A DNA stretch of 64,000 nt from a candidate division FCPU426 bacterium (GTDB lineage Bacteria; Oederibacteriota; Muellerivitia; Muellerivitales; Muellerivitaceae): contig DAIDGV010000024.1 in assembly GCA_027452205.1 (NCBI GenBank), forward strand, positions 30,750-94,749, read 5' to 3'. How positions within the stretch are numbered: position 1 is the stretch's first letter; every line of letters starts with the position of its first letter. A program made the translations under genes and the position numbers. Positions 6,341 through 28,559 of this stretch are shown here, piece after piece. The notes beneath the pieces are model-generated. The model saw only the letters and a list, made by a program, of their open reading frames with translations, ran no database searches and was not told where the DNA came from.

Positions 6341-6464
6341 GTTCGTTCCTTGTTCTTGATTGACCGACAAATGGCTGAGACCCACGGAGGTGGAGAAAGG
6401 AGGGTATCGTGGGGAAACAGAGTTTAAACCCAAAAAGCGGCGAATTCAAAAATTTTATGCGGCT

Positions 6465-7820: not shown

Positions 7821-7866
7821 TTGACCCTCCCAAAGTGAAGAAGATGGGCCCTATGATAACCGAGGA

Positions 7867-9966: not shown

Positions 9967-10168
9967 AAAGTCGTCCTTTCTTGGATTAAGGGCGCCTTTA
10001 TTCTACTGGAAGGTTCAAAAGGTGTTCAGGGTTTCTCGAGCGTCTCATTTCGGTCACCAAGACTGATAAAAGTAAAAACCCTTTCGATCAAACCGGTCCT
10101 TTCCACTTTAAAAGACCCTTCTTTTATGGGAAACTCCGTTCCCCAACAGTTCATCCCACGAGGCATCC

Positions 10169-10918
10169 ATGAATCCCCTTTGGTTCCAAACTCTGGTTAG
10201 TGTGACCATTGTCAGCCTTTTATCTTTACTGGTAGTCATGGTGCTATGGCTCCAGCCCAGGACCCTACAAAAACTCTTGATCCCTTTGATCAGCTTGGCC
10301 GTAGGAGGTCTTTTCGGCGACGCTTTCCTTCATTTGATCCCCGATTGTTTTCAAAACACCAAGGACCCTAGTCAGGTCTCCCTCTTGATCCTTGGAGGTC
10401 TTCTTCTTTTCCTTACCCTGGAAAAAAGCATGCATTACTACCATCATCACCAGCACGAGGAGGAGGAAGTCCATCCCTATGGTTATCTCAGCCTCATAGC
10501 CGGCGGCCTGCATAACTACATCGACGGCCTGCTGATCGGTGCCTCCTATTTGGCCGGTTTCTCCGTGGGTTTGGCCACCACCTTAGCGGTGATCCTGCAT
10601 GAGATACCGCACGAATTGGGGGATTTCAGCATTTTGGTCAAGGCTGGTTTCAAACCATTGAAGGCCCTTTTTTTCAACTTCTTCTCCGCCCTGCTGGCCA
10701 TTGCGGGCGCATTGACCGCCCTGGCGCTTTCCATCGGCAATCCAGAATCTGTCACGCGGATCATCCTTCCGATGACCGCGGGCGGTTTCATTTACATTGC
10801 CGGTTCGGATCTGATCCCGGAACTGCATAAGGAAAAGACCCTTTCTTCTTCCTTGGTTCAGATATTATCCATGATCGCTGGCGCTGGACTGATGTTGCTG
10901 ATCAAACTACTGGAGTAG
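10169..10918 (+). CDS. zupT: ZIP family divalent metal transporter
   Basis: 249 aa; His-rich cytoplasmic loop (HYYHHHQHEEEEVH) and the conserved HEIPHELGDF ZIP motif. GAGG Shine-Dalgarno. Confidence 0.85.
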   Translation: MNPLWFQTLVSVTIVSLLSLLVVMVLWLQPRTLQKLLIPLISLAVGGLFGDAFLHLIPDCFQNTKDPSQVSLLILGGLLLFLTLEKSMHYYHHHQHEEEEVHPYGYLSLIAGGLHNYIDGLLIGASYLAGFSVGLATTLAVILHEIPHELGDFSILVKAGFKPLKALFFNFFSALLAIAGALTALALSIGNPESVTRIILPMTAGGFIYIAGSDLIPELHKEKTLSSSLVQILSMIAGAGLMLLIKLLE

Positions 10919-10995
10919 CTGGATTTTACTAGCCGCGTCTAGCCTCCACTAAGGCCCGAGATTAAACTGATCCTAACCCATCCAAGGAGCCAAAC

Positions 10996-11478
10996 ATGAA
11001 CGTTTATGATTTCAAAGCCAAGACCATCGACGGAAAGGAAATTTCCCTGGACGTATACAAAGGAAAAACCCTTTTGATCGTGAATGTAGCCAGCAAGTGC
11101 GGCTTTACGCCTCAATACGAGGGTTTGGAAAAGCTTTATAAGGATTACCAAGCCAAGGGTTTAGAGATATTGGGGTTTCCTTGCAATCAATTCGGCCATC
11201 AGGAACCTGGCACCGAGGCCGAGATCCAAAGTTTTTGCAGCCTGACCTACGGGGTCTCTTTCCCCATGTTCGCCAAGGTGGACGTGAACGGCGACGACGC
11301 CCATCCGCTCTATAAATACCTCACCCATGACAAACCCGGCATCTTGGGAACCGAGGCCATCAAGTGGAACTTCACCAAATTCCTTATCGGAAAGGATGGC
11401 GAACCGCTGAAACGCTACGGCTCCGCGGACAAACCGGAGAGCCTGACCGGTGATATCGAAACCGCTTTGAACAAGTAA
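10996..11478 (+). CDS. glutathione peroxidase
   Basis: 160 aa; VASKCGFTPQYEGLE…LGFPCNQFGHQEPG active-site motifs of the GPx/BtuE family. AAGGAG Shine-Dalgarno. Confidence 0.9.
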   Translation: MNVYDFKAKTIDGKEISLDVYKGKTLLIVNVASKCGFTPQYEGLEKLYKDYQAKGLEILGFPCNQFGHQEPGTEAEIQSFCSLTYGVSFPMFAKVDVNGDDAHPLYKYLTHDKPGILGTEAIKWNFTKFLIGKDGEPLKRYGSADKPESLTGDIETALNK

Positions 11479-11483
11479 TTCTG

Positions 11484-11528
11484 AAAAAGAAAAGGCCCGG
11501 CTTCGATATCGAGGCTGGGCTTTTTTTA
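11484..11528. terminator. bidirectional rho-independent terminator between convergent gpx and nmrA-like genes
   Basis: GC-rich hairpin GCCCGGCTTCGA-TATC-GAGGCTGGGC, flanked by an A-run on one side and a T-run on the other. Confidence 0.6.
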
Positions 11529-11541
11529 TTGCGCTGCTTTG

Positions 11542-12438
11542 TTAATGGGCCGTGGGCGGTTGGGTCAAAGCCTCCCGGTGGGCCAAAAGATAATTTTCAA
11601 CGCTTTGAGGTTCTTTTCCGGTCAGGTCTTTCACAGCGGTGGAAGGCACCGCCAAATATCCCTCGGCAATAGCCATTTCAAAAGAAACTAAGGCTTCTTG
11701 AAGAAAATTCGGCAACCCCGCCCCCGCATAACCCGCCTTGAGGGTACTGGCGGCCACTTGCATGAATCCAATAGGTTTTGCGGTCAATCTCGCCGCGATC
11801 GTCGCCAATTCATTCCCTTTAACAATGGCCGGGCCAGTAATATCCAACGTTCGGTTCTTGGCCTCGGCGGACAAGAGGGCCGCCGCATCCGCCTGGGCGC
11901 AATCTTCCCGGGTGACATAAGCGGCGCCGCTATCCCCCGGCGCTCCGAACAACTTGCCTTTGACGATAGCTTGGGAAAGTTTGGGGATCAAATAATCGGT
12001 ATACCAGTTGTGACGCAGGATGGTCCAAGTCATGTTACTCGCGGCCAGGGCTTGCTCGGTGCCTAAATGATCCGGCGCGAAGGTGATGGGATTTCCGGCT
12101 TCCGGTCTCGGCATGGAGGTATAAACCACATGTTTGACGCCCGCTTTTTCGGCGGCGGCTACCGCGTTCTTATGCTGGATCAGGCGCTGTCCCGGGCGGG
12201 CCAATTCGTCCGTACTGATAAGAAGCAGACGATCCACCCCCGCGAAGGCCTTTTCTAAACCGGCGGGATCCTCGAAATTGCCCGCGCGCACTTCCACTCC
12301 TTGGGCGACGAGATCCTTTAACTTGTCCGGCGTGCGGGTGACCGCCACTATCGCTCCGGCCTTGGCTTCCAATAAAAGCTCAACAACCCTTCGGCCTAAA
12401 TGACCCGATGCGCCGGTGACAAGCAATTTTCGATCCAT
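11542..12438 (-). CDS. NmrA-like / atypical SDR NAD(P)H-binding oxidoreductase
   Basis: 298 aa; N-terminal LLVTGASGHLGRRVVELL Rossmann motif and NmrA-like overall architecture. Confidence 0.75.
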   Translation of the reverse strand: MDRKLLVTGASGHLGRRVVELLLEAKAGAIVAVTRTPDKLKDLVAQGVEVRAGNFEDPAGLEKAFAGVDRLLLISTDELARPGQRLIQHKNAVAAAEKAGVKHVVYTSMPRPEAGNPITFAPDHLGTEQALAASNMTWTILRHNWYTDYLIPKLSQAIVKGKLFGAPGDSGAAYVTREDCAQADAAALLSAEAKNRTLDITGPAIVKGNELATIAARLTAKPIGFMQVAASTLKAGYAGAGLPNFLQEALVSFEMAIAEGYLAVPSTAVKDLTGKEPQSVENYLLAHREALTQPPTAH

Positions 12439-12730: not shown

Positions 12731-13186
12731 ATGAAAAAATTACAACTGGCTTTGTTTGCTCTCTTGGTCCTAGTGGGTTCTCAATCTTGGGCAACCCGCC
12801 AAGTGAACGAGCTCGAAAAGAATTATCCGGTCCTTTCCGCCTTTTACCCTGTCCCGGACAATGAAAAAAAACAATTTAAAGACGTTTATTTCCGCTTGGG
12901 CTGGAAGGCCCGTAAGCCTTACCGGATCGCCGTCCAATTCACCAACCAATCCTATAAGACCGTACCATTGAAGTTCGCCTTGAAGGATGTGACCACCCAA
13001 AAAATGGTCATTCTGGATAAAGGGAAGAACACGGCGGTGGGCGCGGAAACCTTAGGATCCATCTCCGAAGGGGCTCTTTGGTCGGCCCTCATCCAGGATA
13101 AGAAGGATCATTTCATCCTCAGGGTCTGGGATAAGGATGGGAGCGAGACTCGTTCAAGAGAGCTCGTTTTCCAAGAAAAGAAATGA
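12731..13186 (+). CDS. hypothetical secreted protein
   Basis: 151 aa; signal peptide MKKLQLALFALLVLVGSQSWA with cleavage-like SWA-T. No recognisable domain. Confidence 0.5.
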   Translation: MKKLQLALFALLVLVGSQSWATRQVNELEKNYPVLSAFYPVPDNEKKQFKDVYFRLGWKARKPYRIAVQFTNQSYKTVPLKFALKDVTTQKMVILDKGKNTAVGAETLGSISEGALWSALIQDKKDHFILRVWDKDGSETRSRELVFQEKK

Positions 13187-13201: not shown

Positions 13202-13954
13202 CTACTTGGCAGTCTTTTCCGGCGGGGTCACGCCGAATTGGGCATCTACCAACGAAGCGATGACCGAATGCCCCAGGTTGTTCGGGTGCACATCCCCGTT
13301 CACGAAATATTCCGGATGGCCCATAAAGGCCGTATAGACATCGGCCACTTTCACATTGTTGGCCGCCGCCACTTCCCGGATCGACTTGTTGAATTCTTGC
13401 AAGATCCCGGCGGGTTTCATGGGTAGGCAAATACCCTTGCCGCCGTTGTTCGGATCGGGAATAGTGCAGAGCACTAGGTCGCAGTGGGGATTGAACTTCA
13501 GGATCGCTTCCACGCAGGTTTGCAGTTTGCTCTTATAGGCGGCCGCGCAAGCCATGCCCTGTTCCAGGGTGGGCGGATGGTCACAAACAATGCAAGCGCA
13601 GGAGGACTGAAGATCGCCGATCCCCACGTTCAGGACCGCGCGTTCCATGGGTCCCTTATGGGCCTGCGTGACCTTATCCAGATCCGTCTGGAGGCTCCCT
13701 TTCACGGAATCGATGGTTCCTCCCCCTTGACCGTAATTGAGCAGAGTGATATGGGGATAATACTCATCTAGGTCGCCGGCCGTCAGCGAGGCGAAGGAAT
13801 CGCTCAAAGGCATCGCCTTAGCGCCGGCGGCATAGCAGTCGCCGAATACACCGAAGACCGTGTCTTTCGGGGCGTGGCGGTAAGGCAGGGTGCCGCAGCC
13901 GGCCCCGATCAAAGCGATGGTCAACAATAGGATCGATCCGATTCTCATTTTCAT
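13202..13954 (-). CDS. SGNH/GDSL-family hydrolase lipoprotein, with Cys at the nucleophile position
   Basis: 250 aa; lipoprotein-like signal (LIGAGC). Block I reads FGDCYAAG (GDS→GDC), block II is NYGQGGGT, and block V is DGVHPNNLGH. Confidence 0.6.
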   Translation of the reverse strand: MKMRIGSILLLTIALIGAGCGTLPYRHAPKDTVFGVFGDCYAAGAKAMPLSDSFASLTAGDLDEYYPHITLLNYGQGGGTIDSVKGSLQTDLDKVTQAHKGPMERAVLNVGIGDLQSSCACIVCDHPPTLEQGMACAAAYKSKLQTCVEAILKFNPHCDLVLCTIPDPNNGGKGICLPMKPAGILQEFNKSIREVAAANNVKVADVYTAFMGHPEYFVNGDVHPNNLGHSVIASLVDAQFGVTPPEKTAK

Positions 13955-14020
13955 GGGTAACCTTTGGCAGGAATGTTCAACGAGGACTTATATTATCACT
14001 TTTCTCCGGGACACTGAAGT

Positions 14021-15040
14021 TCAAGGCCCTCCGGGCCCATAAGGTCCCCCCGGCACACGGGCATGGTCCAGGGTCCTCGCGAACTCCCGGTTGAATTTCT
14101 TCCGACCCTGGTCATTCAAGTGGGCCGGATCGGAAAAGAGCTTCCAGGAATAGATGGGGGCTTTCGGGTCCAGGATGTGGAATTGAGGGATCCTTTGTGC
14201 CGTCTGGGATAAGTAGAGTCGAAAGTCGCGGATCACTTGCGCTTTTATATGAGGCACCGAAGCCTCGTTCACGGGCATGTCCGCGAAATAGACCGGTATG
14301 CCCGCCTTCCCTAAAAGGTCCAGCGTCCTTTGAAAATAGAGGTCCACCACCGGGCTGACATGGAACCCCTGCAGTTCGGTGTCGTTGTTCAACTGCCGCG
14401 AGCCGTCCATCTGCGGGAAGGAATAGTGTCCCCGGTTTTGGACGACCAATTCCAAAGCTTCCCGGTTCTCTTTCTCACGGACGCCGTAAGGCTGGGCAAA
14501 GAACGAGGAGACCGAGTAAGAAGGGAACCCGCGGGACAGTAAGAAGGAATAAAGGTCCTGTTGGAGACCCCACAGGCCCGGGTCGGTGATGGTCAATTCT
14601 TTATCGCCCTTCTGGCGGATGTTCCCTTCGACCTCGTCGGCCTCGGGGCCGGTCAAGAGCCCGAATTTGACCGTGTTCTCCCAGTAAAAATCCGGATGGA
14701 CGAAATGGTAAGCGCTGAAAGAAAGCAATACCGCCGCCGGTTTGACCGGGGCCTTCAGGAGCTGGCGGACGAGAAAATAACTTTCAATGGGGGTACTGCC
14801 GCTCATACCGAGGTCGACCACCGTCGGCCCCAACCGATCGGGCGCCAGGTCGTTCATCACCATGGAATCGCCGAACAGCACCAGGCCCGGACGGGAATAA
14901 GTTTCGATGAGCTTTTCTTTTCCCTGGAGGATGGCGTAATCCCGGCTCAGATAAGACAAGCGGTGGTCCACCGCCCATTTCCAAACCCCGCCGAAGACCG
15001 AGGCGAAGAACAACGTGAAAACGATCAAATAGGTTCTCAT
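14021..15040 (-). CDS. DltD/AlgJ-like SGNH protein (partner of the MBOAT)
   Basis: 339 aa; N-terminal TM anchor, VLFGDSMV block I, C-terminal DPAHLNDQG block V. Immediately downstream of the MBOAT gene, as in dltBCD, algIJ and patAB. Confidence 0.65.
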   Translation of the reverse strand: MRTYLIVFTLFFASVFGGVWKWAVDHRLSYLSRDYAILQGKEKLIETYSRPGLVLFGDSMVMNDLAPDRLGPTVVDLGMSGSTPIESYFLVRQLLKAPVKPAAVLLSFSAYHFVHPDFYWENTVKFGLLTGPEADEVEGNIRQKGDKELTITDPGLWGLQQDLYSFLLSRGFPSYSVSSFFAQPYGVREKENREALELVVQNRGHYSFPQMDGSRQLNNDTELQGFHVSPVVDLYFQRTLDLLGKAGIPVYFADMPVNEASVPHIKAQVIRDFRLYLSQTAQRIPQFHILDPKAPIYSWKLFSDPAHLNDQGRKKFNREFARTLDHARVPGGPYGPGGP

Positions 15041-15051
15041 TCCCGCCCTTT

Positions 15052-16641
15052 CTAGAACTTGAAGTAAAGAAATTCACTGTTGCCGGTGATCATCAAGAGG
15101 GTCATGCTGGCCAGCAAAGCCAAAGCGAGGGCCCAGCCCCAATTGTTGCGCCAAACAAAGGATAGGACCGGCTTCTCGGCCTTGATCTTGGTCAAAGAGG
15201 CTTTCTCCGCGTCGAAAAGCTGAAGGACGTTCGGAAAGAAAAGGATGATCGCCATCCCGACCGCCAGGCTCAGCCAGCAATTGGTGAAATTCCAATAAGG
15301 CACCGTTATCCCCAGGTAATCGAGCACCGACTCGACCGGGCCCGAAAGTCCACCCACGCTGTCCCCCGTTCCCCGTCCGATCAGGGATTGGATCAGGTTC
15401 CAGGCGTCCCGCAGGTTCTTGGCGCGGAAGAAGACAAAACTGACCAGGACCGCCGTGTAGGTGAGCGCCCATTTCCAAAGGCCGTCCAAACCGCGCAACA
15501 CCGGGGAGGAAACCGTCTTTTTGGGGCCGAACCAGCGCCAGAGATGGTTCACGCTAAGATACAGGCCGTGCAGCAGGCCGAAGATCATGAATTGAAGACC
15601 CGCCCCGTGCCAGATCCCCACCAGGGTCATGGTCACCAGGGTCGGTCCCGCCAGCATCTTGAGGAATCCCTCGGCGGTGATATCGCCGGGTCTCAAAAGG
15701 CTTTTGCCTTGGGCCGCCCGGCGGCGGATGACCCAAAGGGAGATCGGGTTGTAAAGGTATAGGGTCAAATAACGGGTCAGGGAAATGTGCCAGCGCTGCC
15801 AAAAGTCGATGATGCTGCGGCTCTTGTAGGGCGAGTCGAAATTGGCTGGGAAGAAGATGTTGAACATACGGGCCAGCCCCAGGGCCATTTCCGAGTAACC
15901 GGCGAAGTCGAAATAAAGCTGGAGCGAATAACAGGCCACTCCCGCCCAGGCTTCCAGCAGGTGTTTCTCGCCCGTGTTCCGGAAGACATCCGCGGCAATG
16001 GCGGACAGGGGGTCCGCCAAAAGGACCTTTTTGGCCAACCCGAGCACGAAAATGGAAAGGCCGATGGCGATATTGTCCCAGCGGAACCGGTAGGTCTGTT
16101 TCTCGGCGAATTGGGGCATCATTTCCCGGTGATGCAGGATCGGTCCAGCGATCAGGTGCGGGAAAAAAGTCACGAAGAGCAGGTATTCTAGGAATCCCCT
16201 TTCCTTGGCGCTTCCGTCCCGAACGTCGATAAGGAACCCGATCTGCGTGAAGGTGAAAAAGGAAATACCTAGGGGCAGGATCAGGCTTCCCCAAAGCGGT
16301 CCCGCGTAAAGGGTCCGGTCATGGAACCAAGACAACAAGGCCAGCAGGTATTTGTAATAGAAGAGCGCGCCCAGGTTGGCGGTAACACCTAAAGCGAGGA
16401 TCCAGGAACAGGTCCGGGGCCTATTCCCCAGTACCTGCATGGCATAACCGCAGGCGTAATTGAAAAGAATGGAGGCCACCAACAAGATCAAGAAGACCGG
16501 CGACCACCAACCGTAGAAGAAAAGGGAAAGGAACGCCAGCCACCACTTGGCGGCGGTCTCATGGGAAAGGCCTAATAGGTAATAGACCGCCAGGGAGGCC
16601 GGGAGGAAGATGAAAAGGAAAAAAAGTGAGTTGAAAAGCAT
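15052..16641 (-). CDS. MBOAT family membrane-bound O-acyltransferase (DltB/AlgI-like)
   Basis: 529 aa polytopic protein with the MBOAT signature region (…FWQRWHISLTRYLTLYLYNP…) including the conserved His. Confidence 0.8.
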   Translation of the reverse strand: MLFNSLFFLFIFLPASLAVYYLLGLSHETAAKWWLAFLSLFFYGWWSPVFLILLVASILFNYACGYAMQVLGNRPRTCSWILALGVTANLGALFYYKYLLALLSWFHDRTLYAGPLWGSLILPLGISFFTFTQIGFLIDVRDGSAKERGFLEYLLFVTFFPHLIAGPILHHREMMPQFAEKQTYRFRWDNIAIGLSIFVLGLAKKVLLADPLSAIAADVFRNTGEKHLLEAWAGVACYSLQLYFDFAGYSEMALGLARMFNIFFPANFDSPYKSRSIIDFWQRWHISLTRYLTLYLYNPISLWVIRRRAAQGKSLLRPGDITAEGFLKMLAGPTLVTMTLVGIWHGAGLQFMIFGLLHGLYLSVNHLWRWFGPKKTVSSPVLRGLDGLWKWALTYTAVLVSFVFFRAKNLRDAWNLIQSLIGRGTGDSVGGLSGPVESVLDYLGITVPYWNFTNCWLSLAVGMAIILFFPNVLQLFDAEKASLTKIKAEKPVLSFVWRNNWGWALALALLASMTLLMITGNSEFLYFKF

Positions 16642-16662
16642 AGCGTCCTTCGGGGCCGGGGC

Positions 16663-16920
16663 TTATTTCTTCGCCGCGACCCTTTTTTCGATCAGGGCCA
16701 CGAAATCTCCCACGTTGCGCAAGGCCTCCAGCTCGGAAGCGTTGAACTTGATCCCGAACTCCATCTCCACGGCCACGATGATGTTGATATGGTTGAAGGA
16801 ATCCCAACCCTCCACGTCATCCGCGGTGGTCTCGGGCTTCAGGGTGATATCATCGTTCCCCAGCACCTGGGCAAAGATAAGGGTCAGTCGTTGAAAGATC
16901 TCGCTGCGTTCCATGGTCAT
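16663..16920 (-). CDS. acyl/peptidyl carrier protein (DltC-like)
   Basis: 85 aa acidic four-helix protein with a phosphopantetheine-attachment-like …DDVEGWDSFNHI… serine motif. Overlaps the upstream FkbH-like gene by 4 nt. Confidence 0.7.
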   Translation of the reverse strand: MTMERSEIFQRLTLIFAQVLGNDDITLKPETTADDVEGWDSFNHINIIVAVEMEFGIKFNASELEALRNVGDFVALIEKRVAAKK

Positions 16921-18869
16921 TCGCCTTTCTTCACGCGGATAAAGTGGCTGGCGGGCGGTTTTTGGCCCAGCGTCCGGGCCCAGCGGCTCTCGCCCTCAGA
17001 GACGGCCTTCAAGGTCTCGAAGCCCAAACGGGGATAATGCTCTTTCACCATGCCGTTCTTGGCCGTGGCCCGATAGACCCCGATCAACCGTTGGCCGCCC
17101 TTCTGGGCGACCTGCTCCTCTAAAAGTCCCAGCATGGCTTGCTCCACTCCCCGCCCCAGGACCCGGCAGCTCATCAGCCAGCTGTCGATCTCCCAGTCCC
17201 CCTGACCCCGGTCCAGGGCGATAAGGACACCAATGATACCATTATCCCCAAAGCGGTCGGTCAAACGGCACCACAGGGTTACCGCCTTCGGGTCTGCGGA
17301 GAAGTGCTTCACTTCCGCTTCCGTGTGCCGGCGGGTGGTTAGGTTGAATTGGTTGGTCTTATGGAGCAATTGGGCTACCCGGGGCAGATTGACCGGATCG
17401 AAAGTTCCCCAGACCAATTCCATATTGAGGCTTTTCAAATACTCCGAAAGGTCCGTGAAAGAGGCCTGGGCCTGCACGCGTTGCTGGTTTTGCCGGTACT
17501 GTTCGGTACGGGCCAGGTCATCGGATGTTACGCGGACCGACTCGAAATACCCCGCCGAGGCCAGGGTATGGATGAAAAGCGCCGGGTCTTCGGGCATTTC
17601 GGGCACCCGCACCATGGGCAGGGCCTGCCGCACTTGTTCGCGTTCAAAGGGGTTGTCGTCGACGAAGACCAGGGCGTCCAGGCCGATATTAAGTTCCTCC
17701 GCGATCTTTTTCAGGTTGGAGGCCTTGTCGTTCCAGTTGACCGCGAAACAGGCGATGTCGGTCTTTTTGAGGACCATTTCGGGATGTTTGTCGAATGGTT
17801 CCAACCCATTCGTCTCGTCGTTCTTGGAACAGACCGCCAGGATGACGCCCCGCCGGCTCAAGTCCCGGGCGTAACGTTGAAAAGCGGCGTAAGACTCGCC
17901 CAAGGCGCTGCCTTGGCCCAACCGGATGCCTTCTAAACCTTCGTCGCCGATCACGCCGCCCCAAAGGGTGTTATCCAGGTCCAGGACCAGGCATTTGGCC
18001 GACAGCCCCCGCTGGGCCGCTAAAAGCCGGGCCAGCCATTCGCCATAGAGGGGCGCGGCGGCGGGGTTTACCTCTTGTTTCGCTTTGTGCCACAGGACCG
18101 GGTCATGCCATTGGCTCAGACCGTCCACCGCGGCGCGGCCCGCGATGTCCAGCAGATCGACGGAGTTCTCGTCCGCCCAGGACCGCAGGCGCTGTTGAAA
18201 GGTTAGGAGCAGGGCCGCCGGGGAATCCGGCAGTCTTTGCTCGTTGTTGCCCATCAGGGGCTCATAAAGCGGCAGGGGCGTTTGCTGAAGGATAGGGCCC
18301 TTGAACTTTTGCCGGGCCAGCCGCCACAAGGTCACCAGTTGCTGATGGACCGCTTCCAACCGGGTTTCCGCCTCCACGGCGGTCATGCCCGGCGGCTGGG
18401 TGCCGAAAAGATGAAAGGCGTCGAAAGCGAACAAGATCGCGTTGGGGCCAAATTGATGAAGCCGGGACCGGTCGTCGGAAAGTTCCTGCAAGGCCTGGCC
18501 GTAATCGGCCACGTAAGTTTGAACGATCAGTCGGTGGCGAAGACCGCCAATGCGGATACCCGGCAAAAGCTGTTCAACGGTGGAGGACCCCAGCAAGGCC
18601 AGCCGGATCACGGGCAAACCCGGCTCGGCGGTTGAGGCGGTCTTTTCTTGGAGCGCTTTATCGGCTTGCAGGGTTTCGAGGAAGTTCAGGTCGTACCGGG
18701 CTAGGTCGGCCAGAAGGAACAAACCTTCAACCCCCTGTTTTTGTTTAGCCGCTTGGAGGGCTTTGGAAAAATACGGATGTTTGAGAAGCCAAGGCATATT
18801 CATGGGTGAAGAAGACCTCAACTGACAAGATAACGCATTATATAGGGAAAAAGGCCTTCTTCCGTTCAA
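16917..18869 (-). CDS. FkbH-like HAD-IIIC phosphatase-family protein with C-terminal GNAT-like domain (candidate carrier-protein loader)
   Basis: 650 aa. HAD motifs are LVLDLDNTLWGG (DxDxT), AVCSKN and VFVDDNP. The C-terminal region (…NGIIGVLIALD…CRVLGRGVEQAMLG…) resembles the FkbH/GNAT domain. The start codon is uncertain: TTG at 18869, or ATG at 18803/18797. Confidence 0.65.
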   Translation of the reverse strand: MNGRRPFSLYNALSCQLRSSSPMNMPWLLKHPYFSKALQAAKQKQGVEGLFLLADLARYDLNFLETLQADKALQEKTASTAEPGLPVIRLALLGSSTVEQLLPGIRIGGLRHRLIVQTYVADYGQALQELSDDRSRLHQFGPNAILFAFDAFHLFGTQPPGMTAVEAETRLEAVHQQLVTLWRLARQKFKGPILQQTPLPLYEPLMGNNEQRLPDSPAALLLTFQQRLRSWADENSVDLLDIAGRAAVDGLSQWHDPVLWHKAKQEVNPAAAPLYGEWLARLLAAQRGLSAKCLVLDLDNTLWGGVIGDEGLEGIRLGQGSALGESYAAFQRYARDLSRRGVILAVCSKNDETNGLEPFDKHPEMVLKKTDIACFAVNWNDKASNLKKIAEELNIGLDALVFVDDNPFEREQVRQALPMVRVPEMPEDPALFIHTLASAGYFESVRVTSDDLARTEQYRQNQQRVQAQASFTDLSEYLKSLNMELVWGTFDPVNLPRVAQLLHKTNQFNLTTRRHTEAEVKHFSADPKAVTLWCRLTDRFGDNGIIGVLIALDRGQGDWEIDSWLMSCRVLGRGVEQAMLGLLEEQVAQKGGQRLIGVYRATAKNGMVKEHYPRLGFETLKAVSEGESRWARTLGQKPPASHFIRVKKGE

Positions 18870-18882
18870 AAGCGGGATCGGT

Positions 18883-20289
18883 TCAGCCTTGGAATTCCAA
18901 CAACCAGGGAAGGATCTGGTCCATGGGCGTTTCCGCCACCGGCATGGTCGTGGCGGTCTGGTCCGTCGGCAGGCGGGGCAGGCGCCGCGTCGTCACCCGC
19001 ACTCCCGGCAGGGTTTCTTTCAAGTTGGCGCAAAGGGCTTCGCCTTCCTCTTTGGCCATGGCGTATTCGGCCAGGGCCTTAGGCCGCTCCTCCGGCGAGA
19101 CCGCCACCGAGGAAGGATAGAACACCGAGAACTTTTCGGTCTTTTGCCGCAAGACCGCGCAAAGGTCGCGGAACCCTTCCACATAAAAGCGGCGGAACTC
19201 CTCAAGCAGCGCGGGATCGAATTCATTCCCCCGCTTCGCGAAGATGCGTCCGGTCGCGTAATAGTAAACGTGGGTGGGGGCCCAGGGCAGGGTTTGGAGC
19301 TGGCTGGCCGCGGAAGAACGGGCATCGTAAGGCAGAAGATAGGCTTTGCCGCCGAAAGCTTGGATCTCTTTTTGAACTCTTTGGGCGTCCGACAATCCCG
19401 TGGCATAGGTCAGCGCCACTTCCGCCCCGCCCGCGGCCGCCACCTTGGCCGTGTACTCGCCAATGCCCCGGGAACCGCCTACGACCAGAACTTTTTGGCC
19501 TTTGAATTTTCCGGCAGGAACCTGCCGGGCGATCTCCTCCAAAGCGGGTTGGGTAGCCGGGGGTTTACGCCAAGCGGCATCGACCGACCCTTTCCATTGG
19601 GCGCCTTGTACCTCCATGCGAACCCTCGAGAAACGGTCATCGACCGATTGCACCGAATAGCCCAATTCAACCGCCGTTTGGGAAGGATCGAAAGCGATCT
19701 GGAAACCGACAAAGAGCGATTGAAGACCCGGGCATTCCATCCCGACCAGTCGGGACAAAGAAACCAAAAAACCGACCGTCGAGGACCCCAGCCACTGGGC
19801 GGCCTGGGGAAACAGTCCTGCCGCCGCCTCGGACAAACCCAGATGCCCTGACAGACCTGCTTTTATTTGGGAAAAGGAAAGTTCTTTGGGAAGACTCGCC
19901 GCGGGTTTTGAGGTTTCTTTTAATACCGGAGAAGCGGTGGCCGCCTTCGATCCCGTTACTAGGTCCAGGGTCATCACCTTGGCCCCGCCCGCCTCGGCTA
20001 CGCAACGCCAAACCGGGGTCGTCGTCCAAGTGTAACGAACCTCATCTCCCACATAGACCGGTTTCATGAATTGAACTGTCATCTTCGCCAAAGCGGGTCT
20101 TTCACCGGACGTGGCGGCCCAAGCCTCCAATCCCGCTAGAACGGTATGAATGCCATGGACCACCGGCATACCCATGGGCGTGCGGCGGGCTGCCAAAGGG
20201 TCCATATGCAAAGGATTGTAGTCGCCCGAAACTTGGGCGAATCGTTCTTGGTCGGCTATTTCAAAAATTTTAGAGGTCATTCGGTGCAC
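18883..20289 (-). CDS. MaoC-like (hotdog) dehydratase fused to a short-chain dehydrogenase/reductase
   Basis: 468 aa. N-terminal …FAQVSGDYNPLHMD… MaoC motif. C-terminal SDR region with VLVVGGSRGIG…NAAS-like glycine motif and a YAMAK YxxxK motif. Confidence 0.65.
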   Translation of the reverse strand: MHRMTSKIFEIADQERFAQVSGDYNPLHMDPLAARRTPMGMPVVHGIHTVLAGLEAWAATSGERPALAKMTVQFMKPVYVGDEVRYTWTTTPVWRCVAEAGGAKVMTLDLVTGSKAATASPVLKETSKPAASLPKELSFSQIKAGLSGHLGLSEAAAGLFPQAAQWLGSSTVGFLVSLSRLVGMECPGLQSLFVGFQIAFDPSQTAVELGYSVQSVDDRFSRVRMEVQGAQWKGSVDAAWRKPPATQPALEEIARQVPAGKFKGQKVLVVGGSRGIGEYTAKVAAAGGAEVALTYATGLSDAQRVQKEIQAFGGKAYLLPYDARSSAASQLQTLPWAPTHVYYYATGRIFAKRGNEFDPALLEEFRRFYVEGFRDLCAVLRQKTEKFSVFYPSSVAVSPEERPKALAEYAMAKEEGEALCANLKETLPGVRVTTRRLPRLPTDQTATTMPVAETPMDQILPWLLEFQG

Positions 20290-20340
20290 AGGTCGATCTT
20301 AAGAATTTATTTAACCTTCAAAACAACAATTCTTAGAAAT

Positions 20341-21741
20341 TTATGGGGCCTCCGCTGGGTTCCACATCAGTTGCAGATCCTTGACCATCGTTTCCGCTAT
20401 CTCTTTTTCCCCGTTCGGGTCCGAGGCGATCTTCCCGGGTTGCAAGACTTCTAACACATGGGCCGCGGGCAACCACACGCTGCTCAAAGTGCCCATGACC
20501 AGGGGGCTTCTCAATCCCTCCGCCGTTTCCATGAATTTACGGGAGGCGTTCAGGTCTTTGTAGACTGTCGGCCAGAGCCGGTACCCTTTGCCGGTCAGAT
20601 AGGCTGCTGAGGGATAATTGGGGCTGTAGTCATAATGCCAGTCGCAAAGGATGATATCTTTGGGAATGTAAGCCAGCGCTCCGTCCGTTCCATTTTCGCT
20701 CGAATCGAACTTGCTATAACCCATTTGTTCTTTGTTCAGCAGCCGGTCCGCCCACATCAGCATGGTGACATGCCGTAAGGAGAAGAACTGATGGAAAGCC
20801 AGCACTTGCTTGGCGTAAAGCTCCGCCGGGGACTTGCCCTTGCATCGCGGACAATCCCCACTGGCGATCACCATCACCTCGTCCATCCCCACATGGAACA
20901 TATCGGTCTGGAAAGCGTCTAAAAGTTCGCCGAACAGGTCGAACATAATAGGATTCACCTTCGGGTTGAGAGGGCACCAGGAGCGGCAGTAAAAATCCTT
21001 GCTGCTCAAGGTCGTTTCCGGCGTCGAACCATCCGCTGGTTCTTCCAGGTCCGGATGGGCCTTCAACAGGGCGCCAGGAGGCAAATGCCAGGATTGATGG
21101 CCCAGGCAATTGATCTCCGGGATCACCTTGATCCCGTTGTCCCGGCAAGTTTGGGTCAGGTCCCGGATCTCGGCCAAGGTCCAGGGCCGGTCCGACTGCG
21201 CGGCGATCTCCGGGTGACTTTTAAAGGCAAAGTTATAGTCGATCTCATAGACCAGCACATTACAGTGGTTCTTCACCAGTACCGTTTGGATTAGTGCCTT
21301 GATCTGGGGCAGGCTCGCCGGGCCCGAATCAAGCACATGGACTCCCCGCCAGGCTTGGCGTGGCCAATCGGCGATCGTGGCATAAGCATAACTTCCATCC
21401 GGCAGGCGCAACTGCTGAAGGGTCTGCCTTCCATAAAGCTCGCCGTGTTTGTCTTTAGCCAAAAGCAGAGCGCCACTGGCATTCACTTGAAGTAGGTAAC
21501 CTTCGTAAGGGATCTGGTGCCGGGGAAGCTGTTGGGCAAAAGCTTGGAAGAGAGCTTCCGCCTGAGGCGATCTTTTCACGCTGTCATACTCGACCGCCAC
21601 ATTTCCAGTCGTCCCCGATCCGGCGAGCCAATTCAGGACCTGGGGCTTGGGCTCCAGGGAAGGTTCTGTTCCCCATACCTTTGAAAAAAAAACGAAACAG
21701 AGAACAGCCAGAACGAACCGGTGGATTGAAATTTGTCTCAT
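20341..21741 (-). CDS. secreted glycoside hydrolase family 20-like protein (beta-N-acetylhexosaminidase-like)
   Basis: 466 aa; signal peptide. …VIPEINCLGHQSW… and …HVGMDEV… resemble the GH20 catalytic (H-x-G-G/D-E) region. Confidence 0.5.
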   Translation of the reverse strand: MRQISIHRFVLAVLCFVFFSKVWGTEPSLEPKPQVLNWLAGSGTTGNVAVEYDSVKRSPQAEALFQAFAQQLPRHQIPYEGYLLQVNASGALLLAKDKHGELYGRQTLQQLRLPDGSYAYATIADWPRQAWRGVHVLDSGPASLPQIKALIQTVLVKNHCNVLVYEIDYNFAFKSHPEIAAQSDRPWTLAEIRDLTQTCRDNGIKVIPEINCLGHQSWHLPPGALLKAHPDLEEPADGSTPETTLSSKDFYCRSWCPLNPKVNPIMFDLFGELLDAFQTDMFHVGMDEVMVIASGDCPRCKGKSPAELYAKQVLAFHQFFSLRHVTMLMWADRLLNKEQMGYSKFDSSENGTDGALAYIPKDIILCDWHYDYSPNYPSAAYLTGKGYRLWPTVYKDLNASRKFMETAEGLRSPLVMGTLSSVWLPAAHVLEVLQPGKIASDPNGEKEIAETMVKDLQLMWNPAEAP

Positions 21742-21847: not shown

Positions 21848-21886
21848 AAAACCAGCCCCTTCTTTTAAAGGGGCTGGGTTTTTCAA
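21848..21886. terminator. bidirectional rho-independent terminator downstream of tRNA-Gln
   Basis: AAAAAAA-CCAGCCCCTT-CTTTTAA-AGGGGCTGG-GTTTTT. A 10-bp GC stem flanked by A- and T-runs. Confidence 0.7.
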
Positions 21887-21961
21887 TGGCTGGGGCGGTA
21901 GGATTCGAACCTACGAATGCCAGATCCAAAATCTGGTGACTTACCGCTTGTCGACGCCCCA
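21887..21961 (-). tRNA. tRNA-Gln (anticodon UUG), CCA encoded
   Basis: Reverse complement TGGGGCGTCGACAAGCGGTAAGTCACCAGATTTTGGATCTGGCATTCGTAGGTTCGAATCCTACCGCCCCAGCCA. Cloverleaf with a 7-bp acceptor stem, anticodon stem CCAGA/TCTGG, loop TTTTGGA, and a GTTCGAATC T-loop. Closely resembles E. coli tRNA-Gln. Confidence 0.9.
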
Positions 21962-22045: not shown

Positions 22046-22282
22046 TTGGAGACCCGGAAAAGGCCGTGTTACGCTGAACTTATGAGCAATGAACAAGTTC
22101 CTTTCGAGATCCGCTCCCTTCCCTCGCTTTTAGAGCTTGGCCAGCGGACCAAACAAGACCGTTACGTCAATGAGACCGAGGAGCTTTTTTACACCTGTCC
22201 TCAATGCGGCCACCCCATGGTGACCAAAAAATGCAAGATCGTCTGCTACACCTGCCACTATTTCATTGGTTGCGTAGAATGA
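22046..22282 (+). CDS. hypothetical small zinc-ribbon protein
   Basis: 78 aa; CPQC-x12-CYTC plus additional Cys/His (…CHYFIGC). The 3' end overlaps the convergent hydrolase gene by about 25 nt. Confidence 0.35.
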   Translation: METRKRPCYAELMSNEQVPFEIRSLPSLLELGQRTKQDRYVNETEELFYTCPQCGHPMVTKKCKIVCYTCHYFIGCVE

Positions 22283-23346
22283 ACTTTCTTTAGGAAAAAG
22301 GCTTCTAATTTTTTCGAGAGACTTTCTTTAGGCTGCTGCATCGGCAGCACCTTGGCGTTCTTTAAAAGTTCCTTTTGGTCCGGCTCCGGAAAATGGTCAC
22401 GCACTTCTTTCAAGAACCCCTTGACCGCCTGCTCGTAAGCCTCGGGCGCGATCAGGTAGGTCTGTTCATGCCCCGCATCCGGCACATAGACCAGGGCCCG
22501 GTGGTGGGTTTGGGTCATATTGAACAACTGTCTCACTTCTGAGGATCGGGCTAGATCATCGGCTTCACCGGTGATATAGAGGATGGGCACCTCATTGAAA
22601 TGGGCCACTACCGGGGCCAGGTCTAGGTCCGTCGCGGTCAAGTTTAGCCCGGTCAAAAGATCGTAATCCTTCAAACATAGGTCCAAAAAGCCGGGCAACC
22701 TAGTGAAGACCCCACCCAAAGTACGCTGGGCGACATAGGACTTGCCATTAGGCAAGGGGCTGTCCGCGATGACCGCGTCCACTTGGGGATATTGGGCCGC
22801 CGCGCGGATCGAGCTAATGGCGCCCATGGAAAAGCCCATAAAGACCAGGGGCCGGACCAAATGATGGCTATCCTCAAGGTAATGGACTGCGGCTAGGTAA
22901 TCCCCTGCTTCAAGGACCCCGCCTGAAACCGGGCTCTCCCCGCTGAGGCCCTCTCCCCTTTGATCGAAAAGAAGGACCTGGTAACCCGCCTTGACCAGGA
23001 ATTCCGCGCGGCTCAGCATTTGGCCCCGGTTCTTGAAGATACCGTGGCTCAAGAGGATCGTTCCCAAGGGTTTATGGACCTTCGGAGGCATCCACCAGCC
23101 GGAGATGACAATATCTTCTGGGGTCTTGAAGGAAACGTCTTTATAGGCAAAACCATCGTCTTTGGGGGTCCAATGGATAGCCAGCCGGATCTTGGATTTG
23201 GCTACGATCGAGGCCGCGATCTTCCCTGGCAAAAGGACATAAACGAAATAACTGAAACCGGCCACAACAAGAGCCAAGAGAATGAGCCCAATGACCAGGA
23301 TGGTCTTGAGCCCTTTATTTGTCTTTTCCATCTTGGAATGATTCAT
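22258..23346 (-). CDS. alpha/beta hydrolase-fold membrane-anchored protein
   Basis: 362 aa; N-terminal TM, nucleophile elbow GFSMGA (GxSxG), and Asp/His candidates downstream. Confidence 0.7.
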   Translation of the reverse strand: MNHSKMEKTNKGLKTILVIGLILLALVVAGFSYFVYVLLPGKIAASIVAKSKIRLAIHWTPKDDGFAYKDVSFKTPEDIVISGWWMPPKVHKPLGTILLSHGIFKNRGQMLSRAEFLVKAGYQVLLFDQRGEGLSGESPVSGGVLEAGDYLAAVHYLEDSHHLVRPLVFMGFSMGAISSIRAAAQYPQVDAVIADSPLPNGKSYVAQRTLGGVFTRLPGFLDLCLKDYDLLTGLNLTATDLDLAPVVAHFNEVPILYITGEADDLARSSEVRQLFNMTQTHHRALVYVPDAGHEQTYLIAPEAYEQAVKGFLKEVRDHFPEPDQKELLKNAKVLPMQQPKESLSKKLEAFFLKKVHSTQPMK

Positions 23347-24215
23347 CGCTTCTCGATCCCCGTTGGAATGGTCTTGGTAATGAAGACCTCGAACCCTTCA
23401 GCTTGGAAACTTTCACTGATAGAAGTCGCTTCTTTTTCGTTAGCGGTCACCGCGAATACCGTTGGGCCGCTGCCCGAGACCAAGGCGCCCTTGGCCCCCG
23501 CTTGGACCAGACGGTCCTTGACCGCCTTCACATCGGGACGCAGATGGAAGGCCGCAGTCTCAAGACCATTAAAAAGGGCGGCGGCAAAATCGTCCACCGT
23601 TCCTTTTTCAAGGAACTTCTCGAAGGACAACACCTTTTCTCCCGAGGTCAGTTGGGCTTTGCCCGAACGGTATACCGCCGGGGTTGAAAGACCTTCGGGG
23701 GTCTTGATGAGCAAAAGGGATATGGGAATGAACCCTTTCCAGGGAGTGATCTTTTCCCCTCGGCCCGTGCCCAAAGCCGCACCGCCGGTCAAAAAGAAAG
23801 GAACATCGGACCCCAACCGGCCCGCCAGATCCATCATTTGGCTTTCAGGCACATCCGCTTCGTAAAGCCATTGCAAGCCCCGCAAGACCGCCGCCGCGTC
23901 ACTGGAACCGCCACCTAACCCCGCCGCCACGGGGATGTTCTTTTGCAAGGTGATCGACACACCGCCTTTGCCGCCTAAAACCTCGGCCATGAAAAGTTTG
24001 GCGGCCTTCACGATCAAGTTGGAATCATCCAAGGTCAGGTCTTGGGGACCCTTCTCAAGGACCAGTTGGATACCTTGGTCTTTTTTTTCAAAAGAAAGCT
24101 GGTCGAAAAGACCAACAGCTTGGAAGACCAGGGCCAGTTCATGATAACCGTCCGGCCGGAGTCCCAGCACTTCAAGGATCGGATTGATCTTGGCGGGGGT
24201 GCGAAGGGTCAGCAC
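23343..24215 (-). CDS. ispE: 4-diphosphocytidyl-2-C-methyl-D-erythritol kinase
   Basis: 290 aa; GHMP kinase fold with N-terminal PAKINPILEVLG…DGYH and PVAAGLGGGSSDAAA ATP-binding motifs. Confidence 0.88.
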   Translation of the reverse strand: MLTLRTPAKINPILEVLGLRPDGYHELALVFQAVGLFDQLSFEKKDQGIQLVLEKGPQDLTLDDSNLIVKAAKLFMAEVLGGKGGVSITLQKNIPVAAGLGGGSSDAAAVLRGLQWLYEADVPESQMMDLAGRLGSDVPFFLTGGAALGTGRGEKITPWKGFIPISLLLIKTPEGLSTPAVYRSGKAQLTSGEKVLSFEKFLEKGTVDDFAAALFNGLETAAFHLRPDVKAVKDRLVQAGAKGALVSGSGPTVFAVTANEKEATSISESFQAEGFEVFITKTIPTGIEKR

Positions 24216-24221
24216 GGATCT

Positions 24222-25961: not shown

Positions 25962-26043
25962 ACTTTCAAGGTTTTAGGAAAGGTATTATATCGTACCCCA
26001 CCCGCAAAAAGACAAGGCGTCGCAGCGCCGTTCCATGGAGACT

Positions 26044-28439: not shown

Positions 28440-28559
28440 AGGTGTCCTCCCTGGTCTTTCGGCCACGGGCAATGGGAATCACAAAGGCATTAGAACTATA
28501 ACATAGGGCTTAAAGGCTTAACGGAACGAAAGGCTTTTTCCGGAAGCTTTTTGAGGCAT

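Follow-up and report, generated by a model that had tools for sequence, protein, structure and literature searches.

A stretch of 64,000 nucleotides (nt) from a candidate division FCPU426 bacterium (contig DAIDGV010000024.1, positions 30,750 to 94,749; hereafter, the window) carries at positions 13202-21741 a cluster of seven genes. A preliminary description, made from the letters of the DNA and their translations, had read this cluster as an operon for surface acylation resembling the Dlt system, with an FkbH-type enzyme standing in for DltA, the adenylating ligase by which the carrier is charged. We found all seven open reading frames (ORFs) to be present and co-directional on the minus strand, with the coordinates claimed, and their family assignments held. 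However, the core that is conserved elsewhere proved narrower, at five genes, and the neighborhood gained an eighth gene that had been overlooked, encoding a secreted protein of 151 amino acids (aa). In the direction of transcription, the features of the locus are as follows:

21887-21961 and 21852-21877, minus strand: upstream boundary, formed by tRNA-Gln (anticodon TTG) and a terminator with an 11-bp stem, respectively.
20341-21741, minus strand: glycoside hydrolase of the GH20-like type, secreted, 466 aa, at the start of the cluster (PF00728, 46.9 bits against a threshold of 22.3).
18883-20289, minus strand: MaoC hotdog (de)hydratase fused to a short-chain dehydrogenase/reductase (SDR), 468 aa (MaoC, 63.5 bits; adh_short, 33 bits).
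16917-18803, minus strand: FkbH-like loader, 628 aa, with three domains (SGNH-like FkbH_N, HAD-IIIC phosphatase, and GNAT-like acyl-transfer).
16663-16920, minus strand: stand-alone acyl carrier protein (ACP), 85 aa (PP-binding, PF00550, 35.1 bits against 20.8).
15052-16641, minus strand: membrane-bound O-acyltransferase (MBOAT), 529 aa (PF03062, 74.4 bits against 27).
14021-15040, minus strand: membrane-anchored SGNH-fold transferase related to DltD/DUF1574/LB_356, 339 aa (predicted Ser59 and Asp304-x-x-His307).
13202-13954, minus strand: GDSL-family lipoprotein-like protein, 250 aa (Lipase_GDSL_2, 58.3 bits against 32.9).
12731-13186, plus strand: secreted 151-aa protein without a family match, convergent with the cluster and kept with it in the lineage.

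The seven-gene unit is compact and cleanly delimited, since its internal gaps are short, a tRNA gene and a terminator lie upstream, and a convergent ORF lies downstream. From the first gene to the last, the gaps measured 51, 79, -4, 21, 11, and 66 nt. The 79-nt gap before the FkbH-like gene shrinks to 13 nt with a TTG start, and the negative value is an ATGA in which the FkbH-like stop codon overlaps the ACP start codon, an overlap that had been claimed previously and that we confirmed by direct reading. The terminator is strong and bidirectional and stands between tRNA-Gln and the operon; the ~110 nt that separate it from the GH20 start make up the region of the promoter and ribosome-binding site. 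On the 3' side, the convergent ORF stops 15 nt from the last stop codon of the operon. An Rfam scan detected nothing but the tRNA, and scans for consensus sigma-70 promoters did no better than on shuffled sequence. The tRNA-Gln gene and terminator could serve as an integration landmark. The G+C content of the operon (0.53-0.60, vs. 0.50-0.59 elsewhere) reveals no clear island, and the window is ordinary chromosome, encoding PolC-type DNA polymerase III, IF-2, NusA, PNPase, DnaK, ProS, RseP, and GlmU. A search with DnaK assigned the organism to an uncultured lineage, the closest named matches being those of Deferribacter and Ca. Omnitrophica, with only 71-73% identity.

The protein proposed to load the carrier gave no match in a Pfam search, and its family was assigned with NCBIfam. 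As the preliminary description had anticipated, it scored above the cut-offs of both the FkbH profile TIGR01686 (308.3 bits vs. 146.65, over model positions 3-320 of 323) and the HAD-IIIC profile TIGR01681 (57.7 vs. 35.75), and the catalytic residues of the HAD domain are present. The DxDxT motif reads LVLDLDNTLWGG, with D275, D277, and T279, and an alignment of 60 homologues showed these three residues to be invariant, as were CSKND, K360, and DDNPFE. Among the same 60 sequences, one cysteine was invariant (C546, in SCRVLGR) and two others, C271 and C325, were conserved in at least 90%. The length of 650 aa given earlier is that of the mechanical ORF (16917-18869), which reaches a TTG at 18869; translation more probably begins at the ATG at 18803, because the 94%-identical homologue P0001 is likewise 628 aa long. 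The earlier label, HAD-IIIC/GNAT, was correct but incomplete, as it omitted FkbH_N (residues 1-270), an SGNH-like domain whose Ser73, Gly102, Asn187, and His233 are kept in at least 90% of the 60 homologues. So conserved, FkbH_N suggests a second catalytic activity that goes beyond current models of FkbH enzymes. Proteins of this 630-aa architecture form a very large family (at least 8000 candidates at E 1e-3, many of them >50% identical across phyla). The only solved structure, 3SLR, is of BF1531 from Bacteroides fragilis; it is annotated as uncharacterized and represents a crystallized fragment that lacks the C-terminal GNAT-like domain.

The 85-aa product of the overlapping gene was confirmed as a carrier protein. 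Its PF00550 score is above threshold and its predicted phosphopantetheine site, Ser41 (codon 16798-16800), lies in the sequence GWDSF, of which GWDS is kept in the ACPs of related loci. The best match in the PDB was a putative ACP, 2LML (E 3.6e-19).

The MBOAT assignment was likewise upheld, with PF03062 above threshold and the catalytic histidine motifs intact: W344-H345-G346 is invariant and W284-H285 nearly so, and both align to the histidine motifs of DltB. In the PDB, only DltB structures were related to it at the level of sequence (E about 1e-27; 6BUG, E 2e-27). Judged by its sequence, the MBOAT is nevertheless not a DltB orthologue; it scored 180.1 bits with the DltB equivalog TIGR04091, below the cut-off of 375, and is ~120 residues longer than DltB. 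Its C-terminal extension ends in FLYFKF (codons 15055-15072), an FXYXXF motif, and a terminus of the form F[LI]YFxF occurs in almost all of the FkbH-linked MBOATs. FXYXXF is an acyl-shuttle motif, established by experiment for PatA and DltX: the MBOAT places the acyl group on the motif's tyrosine, from which the SGNH partner then receives it (Anderson, Schultz and colleagues, PMC12148441). In the Dlt pathway, the motif is located in a microprotein, DltX; PatA and other acetyl-CoA systems have it fused to the MBOAT. A carrier protein is used by the Dlt pathway alone, while the other MBOAT/SGNH pathways use acyl-CoA and have none (PMC12148441). Among the ORFs of the 64-kb window, an FXYXXF-type ending is unique to this MBOAT, and no separate, DltX-like ORF ending in the motif was found there. 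Since the motif is fused to the MBOAT's C-terminus, DltX would not be needed.

For the 339-aa protein, described previously as DltD/AlgJ-like, the DltD part of the label held by predicted fold, and the AlgJ part was not supported by sequence. The protein matched neither of the families proposed for it: no hit above threshold was obtained with PF04914 (DltD) or other SGNH families of Pfam, and no match with PF16822 (ALGX)/AlgJ families, although true ALGX proteins were readily detected in two related loci (L088 and L092, see below). Its sole sequence match was to DUF1574, at a sub-threshold score (19.8 vs. 29.1), and its homologues gave weak or faint matches to LB_356 and DUF1574. The latter is listed as an SGNH family of no known function (PMC9487903). 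The predicted structure, however, has an SGNH fold (pLDDT 80, pTM 0.81), and the top six Foldseek hits of the model were all DltD chains (E 2e-5 to 2e-3, TM 0.40-0.45). Partners with an identity of just 11-27% keep the N-terminal membrane helix, the serine of G-[DS]-S (S59), P256, and the histidine of DxxH (H307).

To place these genes in a wider context, we analyzed 83 loci, comprising the best 80 genome matches to the FkbH-like protein and three close metagenomic relatives. An ACP gene was adjacent to the FkbH-like gene in 75 of these, and an MBOAT gene lay within 10 kb of it in 41. A profile hidden Markov model (HMM) of the SGNH partner found matches in 31 of the 41 MBOAT-containing loci and in none of those lacking an MBOAT; most of the misses among the 41 were truncated contigs, and the 409-aa SGNH-like protein of Sinorhizobium meliloti, which the profile also missed, was assigned by its motifs only. 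The FkbH/ACP/MBOAT arrangement is far beyond chance. The gene-neighborhood conservation on which the earlier proposal depended was indeed observed across phyla, with the order of the genes shuffled: FkbH-ACP-MBOAT-SGNH recurs in Acidobacteriota, in Alpha-, Beta-, and Gammaproteobacteria, in one cyanobacterium, and in the uncultured lineage of the window. The four genes remain adjacent in each of four orders, namely FkbH-ACP-MBOAT-SGNH, FkbH-ACP-SGNH-MBOAT, MBOAT-FkbH-ACP-SGNH (Stutzerimonas and Pseudomonas), and MBOAT-SGNH-ACP-FkbH (S. meliloti). In Stutzerimonas, they form a stand-alone unit between regulators, with no other transferase to use the acyl-ACP. The conserved core consists of the MaoC-SDR fusion, the FkbH-like protein, the ACP, the MBOAT, and the DltD-like SGNH protein. 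Two loci from the window's own lineage, L084 and L085 (65% identity), hold these five and the 151-aa protein, without the GH20 gene and the GDSL lipoprotein gene. Culturable carriers of the module include S. meliloti (on pSymB), Stutzerimonas stutzeri (KOS6), Pseudomonas baltica, and Paraburkholderia fynbosensis (LMG 27177).

The MaoC-SDR protein, for which an alternative start is possible at 20280, has the motifs of both of its halves (hydratase FAQVSGDYNPLH, GGSRGIG, and YAMAK). The fusion was found in 9 of the 83 loci, and homologous fusions adjoin the FkbH-ACP pair in L005, L010, L012, L022, L040, L041, L084, L085, and L087. The fusion also accompanies this pair when a WcbI-type transferase stands in for the MBOAT. 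The earlier suggestion that a dehydratase/ketoreductase beside the loader tailors the acyl-ACP fits these observations, because the fusion follows FkbH-ACP whatever the type of transferase; MaoC-SDR is thus a predicted acyl-ACP tailoring enzyme.

Since the sample above was selected through FkbH, it was offset by a reverse sample of 80 metagenomic loci picked by MBOAT alignment alone. An FkbH gene was nearby in 9 of these loci, an ACP gene in 13, and the SGNH partner in 37, i.e., the MBOAT-SGNH pair is broader than its FkbH-linked subset. When the 99 MBOATs bearing an FXYXXF ending were clustered, those linked to FkbH fell almost entirely into three clusters. The cluster that includes the window's MBOAT contained 17 FkbH-linked proteins, 2 with a carrier but no FkbH, 2 unlinked, and 1 undetermined; in the Stutzerimonas cluster, 14 of 15 were FkbH-linked; and in the third cluster, 3 were FkbH-linked, 1 had only a carrier, 1 was unlinked, and 1 was undetermined. 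The large cluster that is sister to these (n = 49) was made up of 14 clearly unlinked, 33 undetermined, and 2 carrier-linked proteins. Among metagenomic loci with sufficient flanking DNA, carrier linkage was seen in 8 of 11 MBOATs from the FkbH-type clusters vs. ~2 of 16 from the sister cluster. MBOATs of the window's clade are therefore usually carrier-linked.

The MBOATs of two loci in the window's cluster, L092 (474-9346) and L088 (4866-8710), end in FLYFQF and are followed immediately by a carrier gene. These loci encode AlgX-type SGNH proteins, the MBOAT, a PP-binding protein, and an AMP-binding enzyme, along with an outer-membrane tetratricopeptide repeat (TPR) protein resembling NfrA/PgaA. 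Their content suggests exopolysaccharide secretion and acylation with an adenylating loader in the style of Dlt, a combination that seems to be undescribed too. Because the AMP-binding enzyme fills the position of FkbH in L088 and L092, loaders of the DltA and FkbH types appear to be interchangeable on closely related MBOATs, and this is the strongest support for the idea that one has replaced the other. In agreement with the preliminary description, a profile search of the 64-kb window in every frame (E up to 10, with a positive control that worked) found no AMP-binding ORF of the DltA type, although such a ligase could be encoded elsewhere in the genome. The replacement of DltA by an FkbH-type enzyme in a Dlt-like relay is thus supported by synteny, by the clades of the MBOATs, and by the L088/L092 variants.

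The cluster shares with DltABCD(X) a small dedicated carrier, an MBOAT related to DltB, and a membrane-anchored SGNH protein that is closest to DltD by Foldseek. Proposed to be common to both is the passage of an acyl group from a cytoplasmic thioester via the MBOAT to a tyrosine, from there to the serine of the SGNH protein, and finally to a polymer. In the Dlt system, however, the carrier is loaded by DltA, whereas the only candidate loader in the window is an HAD/GNAT enzyme of the FkbH type; the shuttle motif resides in DltX rather than in an extra C-terminal extension of the MBOAT; and the group transferred is an amino acid, whereas that of the window's system is predicted to be an uncharged hydroxy acid produced with a dehydratase-reductase tailoring step. 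Unlike the Gram-positive hosts of Dlt, the host here is probably diderm, since a porin-like gene adjoins the cluster in a close relative (L001).

PatA/PatB (with Ape1), AlgI/J/F/X, and WssH/I resemble the cluster in a different respect, combining an MBOAT that bears a fused FXYXXF with a periplasmic or membrane-anchored SGNH transferase. Additional genes of the window's lineage have parallels in these systems, i.e., an SGNH esterase-like protein (cf. Ape1), a small secreted protein (cf. AlgF), and a glycoside hydrolase. PatA, AlgI, and WssH systems nevertheless operate without a carrier (PMC12148441), whereas in the window translational coupling joins an ACP to its loader, with both genes syntenic with that of the MBOAT, and the SGNH partner belongs to the DUF1574/LB_356/DltD-like group and not to the AlgX, AlgJ, or PatB families. 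The L088/L092 variants, with their DltA-like adenylating loader and AlgX-family partners, differ from the window in both loader and SGNH partner.

The glyceryl-ACP synthases of the FkbH family known from polyketide biosynthesis (FkbH, OzmB, the tetronate type of Tmn16, and the loading module of BryA) share with the window a full-length FkbH domain and a dedicated, adjacent ACP, and the DH-KR-FkbH-ACP (dehydratase-ketoreductase-FkbH-ACP) loading module of BryA is paralleled by the neighboring dehydratase and ketoreductase. There, a polyketide synthase (PKS) or ketosynthase receives the unit, whereas here the pair is joined to a membrane acyltransferase relay, the loader has the extra FkbH_N domain, and the DH and KR domains of the polyketide systems are replaced by a MaoC hotdog fused to an SDR. 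The canonical members of the FkbH family, OzmB among them, produce glyceryl-ACP from 1,3-bisphosphoglycerate (1,3-BPG). A hotdog enzyme of the (R)-hydratase type can dehydrate a 3-hydroxyacyl thioester, which would turn 2,3-dihydroxypropanoyl-ACP into pyruvoyl-ACP and, with a ketoreductase, into lactyl-ACP; dehydration and reduction to D-lactyl-ACP have been proposed for the loading module of bryostatin. An excerpt from a literature summary of FkbH loading modules also gives the product as D-lactate-ACP.

Taken with the synteny, these similarities lead us to consider it probable that the cluster encodes an ACP-dependent system of envelope acylation that works as a carrier-protein relay. It is quite possible, by analogy with the polyketide enzymes, that the transferred group derives from glycerate, but rather doubtful that it is specifically lactyl. 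In such a relay, the HAD domain and a conserved cysteine of the FkbH-like protein would capture a glyceryl unit from 1,3-BPG, and the GNAT-like domain would load it onto the ACP, at the phosphopantetheine arm carried by Ser41. The MaoC domain would then remove the 3-hydroxyl, giving an enol-pyruvoyl and then pyruvoyl-ACP, which the SDR would reduce to lactyl-ACP; relatives without the fusion would use glyceryl-ACP directly. On the cytoplasmic face, the MBOAT would accept the acyl group from the ACP and, via its conserved histidine, move it to the tyrosine of FLYFKF on the outer face. The DltD-like SGNH protein would take it onto Ser59 and then transfer it to a hydroxyl of an extracytoplasmic acceptor polymer, which the GDSL lipoprotein, the GH20-like protein, and the 151-aa protein, as accessories of the lineage, might trim, remodel, or present.

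Several points weigh against this relay. The function of the cluster is inferred throughout, from the substrate, the ACP dependence of the MBOAT, and the chemistry of MaoC-SDR to the order of transfer and the acceptor. The operon encodes neither an acceptor polymer nor a polymer synthase, and we know of no report of envelope polymers esterified with lactyl or D-glyceroyl groups in these taxa. C546, C271, and C325 are all candidates for the cysteine of the glyceryl-S-enzyme, and the SGNH-like FkbH_N, which has no role in the relay, could alter its chemistry. Roughly one in two of the related FkbH-ACP pairs lacks a nearby MBOAT, and MBOAT-SGNH pairs at a similar distance (36-47% identity) mostly have no carrier gene nearby. 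The use of an ACP is therefore not a property of the whole MBOAT family.

The last two observations also favor the main rival explanation, which divides the cluster into two halves that share a polymer and nothing else: the MBOAT-SGNH pair would be an O-acetyltransferase like PatAB or AlgIJ that uses acetyl-CoA, as presumably do most members of the wider family, and FkbH-ACP-MaoC-SDR would serve a different, cytoplasmic acylation. Most close relatives of the MBOAT, which end in FLYFQF and retain the SGNH partner, show no carrier gene within 3-6 kb; the fused FXYXXF is also seen in acetyl-CoA users; and one of the MBOAT-less loci has a cytoplasmic WcbI-type transferase. Nevertheless, we consider this explanation unlikely, as carrier linkage is clade-specific and non-random, adjacency of the four genes persists across phyla in spite of four different orders, and the Stutzerimonas unit offers no other transferase to receive the acyl-ACP. 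The same cluster of MBOATs is also paired with a carrier protein and an AMP-binding enzyme, and the sequence-level PDB relatives of the window's MBOAT are exclusively DltB structures.

If the relay holds, the loader could still supply something other than glycerate, either by loading a different acyl phosphate or phospho-acid or through an FkbH_N domain that adds or exchanges the acyl group. The architecture of ~630 aa, with an FkbH_N that retains SGNH residues, sets the protein apart from the polyketide FkbH enzymes of ~360 aa, and no member of this architecture has been characterized, its sole structure being the uncharacterized 3SLR. A different donor is, however, quite unlikely in view of the full-length TIGR01686 match at twice the cut-off, the intact HAD motifs and cysteines, and the presence of a MaoC dehydratase and a ketoreductase, exactly what a 2,3-dihydroxyacyl thioester needs. 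A third explanation would make the locus a small-molecule or lipid cluster, in which glyceryl-ACP is destined for a tetronate, a butenolide, or a glycerate-containing lipid and the MBOAT is a lipid acyltransferase. All characterized FkbH enzymes do come from secondary-metabolite pathways, and some of the MBOAT-less FkbH loci hold very large ORFs or AMP-binding enzymes. Yet the operon contains no ketosynthase, PKS, nonribosomal peptide synthetase, or FabH-like enzyme, the MBOAT has an extracytoplasmic acyl-shuttle motif and a periplasm-facing SGNH partner, and several of the neighbors are secreted proteins, all of which makes this explanation highly improbable.

Glycan-related genes accompany the module in several of its relatives. 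In S. meliloti 1021 (L086, pSymB 622241-641892), the MBOAT gene (5489-7222; product ending in FLYQGF) is followed by those for the 409-aa SGNH-like protein (7226-8455; GGST ... DPGH), the ACP (8516-8767; QWDS), and the FkbH-like protein (8626-10688). Capsule_synth and ABC-2/ABC genes for capsule export lie a few kb away. Strain 1021 has a frameshift in its FkbH gene, but most of the other S. meliloti strains listed give a single uninterrupted match; strains with an intact gene include GR4 and Rm41. In P. fynbosensis (L010), glycosyltransferases of families GT2 and GT87 flank the module, the GT87 gene being a GT-C gene inside the cluster, and in L085 three PMT_2 GT-C genes lie directly beside the FkbH cluster. 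The window, too, encodes two large membrane glycosyltransferase-like proteins of the PMT_2 (GT-C) type, at 7867-9966 and 53480-55879 (both minus strand), one of which has a PA14 domain. PMT_2/GT-C proteins may provide a link to the acceptor glycan.

A different partner was found on a plasmid of Niveispirillum cyanobacteriorum (L087, NZ_CP025615.1), where 7896-12376 encodes an FkbH-like protein, an ACP, a putative polysaccharide acetyltransferase of the WcbI family, and MaoC-SDR. The transferase that accompanies the FkbH-ACP donor pair on this plasmid is thus cytoplasmic, of the WcbI type, in place of the MBOAT. We considered whether such a transferase is the general partner in loci that lack an MBOAT and rejected the idea, as it occurred in three loci only (L087, L024, and L026).

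The GH20-like protein of the window has a signal-like N-terminus and the predicted catalytic motif HVGMDE, which includes the D-E pair. Its match to PF00728 is partial (model positions 69-227 of 348), and the GH20b profile PF02838 scored 35.1 against 26.1. In the preliminary description, this gene had hinted at a polymer containing N-acetylhexosamine, possibly like poly-N-acetylglucosamine (PNAG). We abandoned it as a clue to a PNAG-like acceptor, as the gene is limited to close relatives (L001-L003; ~90% identical, with FkbH-like proteins 94% identical) and occurs neither in L084 and L085 nor in the 80 genome loci.

The SGNH lipoprotein, also described earlier as a component of the system, proved to be an accessory of the lineage, conserved in close relatives only. 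Other than in L001, no homologue was found next to FkbH in the related loci examined. Its block I reads GDC (Cys40) instead of GDS and its block III GIGD instead of GxND, and both variants are retained in the 86%-identical L001 homologue. The protein would be either a cysteine-based SGNH enzyme or inactive; it is possibly an esterase or editing enzyme.

The 151-aa protein has no significant match in Pfam. Homologues lie inside the cluster in L084 (3726-4181) and L085 (7458-7919), where they are 44-46% identical, and L001 has one that is 79% identical. Possibly, it acts in the acylation system as an accessory similar to AlgF.

Every part of the FkbH-ACP-MBOAT-SGNH system and its overall logic are known, but we know of no precedent for how it is wired, for the acyl group predicted, or for how widely it is distributed. 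No description of this wiring was found in the literature searched, although Schultz et al. 2023 or Anantharaman and Aravind 2010 may have mentioned it earlier. MBOAT-SGNH relays are bacteria's main route for acylating polymers outside the membrane, and such acylations affect resistance to antimicrobial peptides, lysozyme, and phage and shape the properties of biofilms. We tentatively suggest that the module represents an undescribed, widespread modification of the diderm envelope, in which glyceroyl or lactyl esters are made from 1,3-BPG without ATP-dependent adenylation and attached to capsule, exopolysaccharide, or lipopolysaccharide by way of a dedicated ACP, an MBOAT shuttle, and a DltD-like transferase, with FkbH and DltA loaders being interchangeable. 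If so, it would constitute a third donor route beside the Dlt carrier and acyl-CoA pathways, predict new ester substituents (glycerate and lactate) on capsules and other envelope polymers, and be an isosteric equivalent of D-alanylation that bears no charge. A first biological role would also be gained for the 630-aa FkbH_N proteins, with their thousands of homologues, for the DUF1574/LB_356 group of SGNH proteins, and for the linked MBOAT clade. As the module is present in culturable organisms, the hypothesis is directly testable.

Elsewhere in the window, the block upstream of the tRNA (22258-28472, minus strand) encodes an alpha/beta hydrolase, a GHMP kinase, a TPR protein, an FAD amine-oxidase-like protein, and a phosphoglycosyl transferase of the WecA/MraY type (Glycos_transf_4); these genes may belong to a glycan pathway. 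The PolC-type DNA polymerase III is encoded at 41638-45375 (minus strand) and scored 1385 bits with the PolC equivalog. An unusual combination, indicative of a little-known lineage, is that of PolC in a genome of 50-60% G+C with sigma-54 activators and, in the relative L001, a porin-like gene near the cluster.

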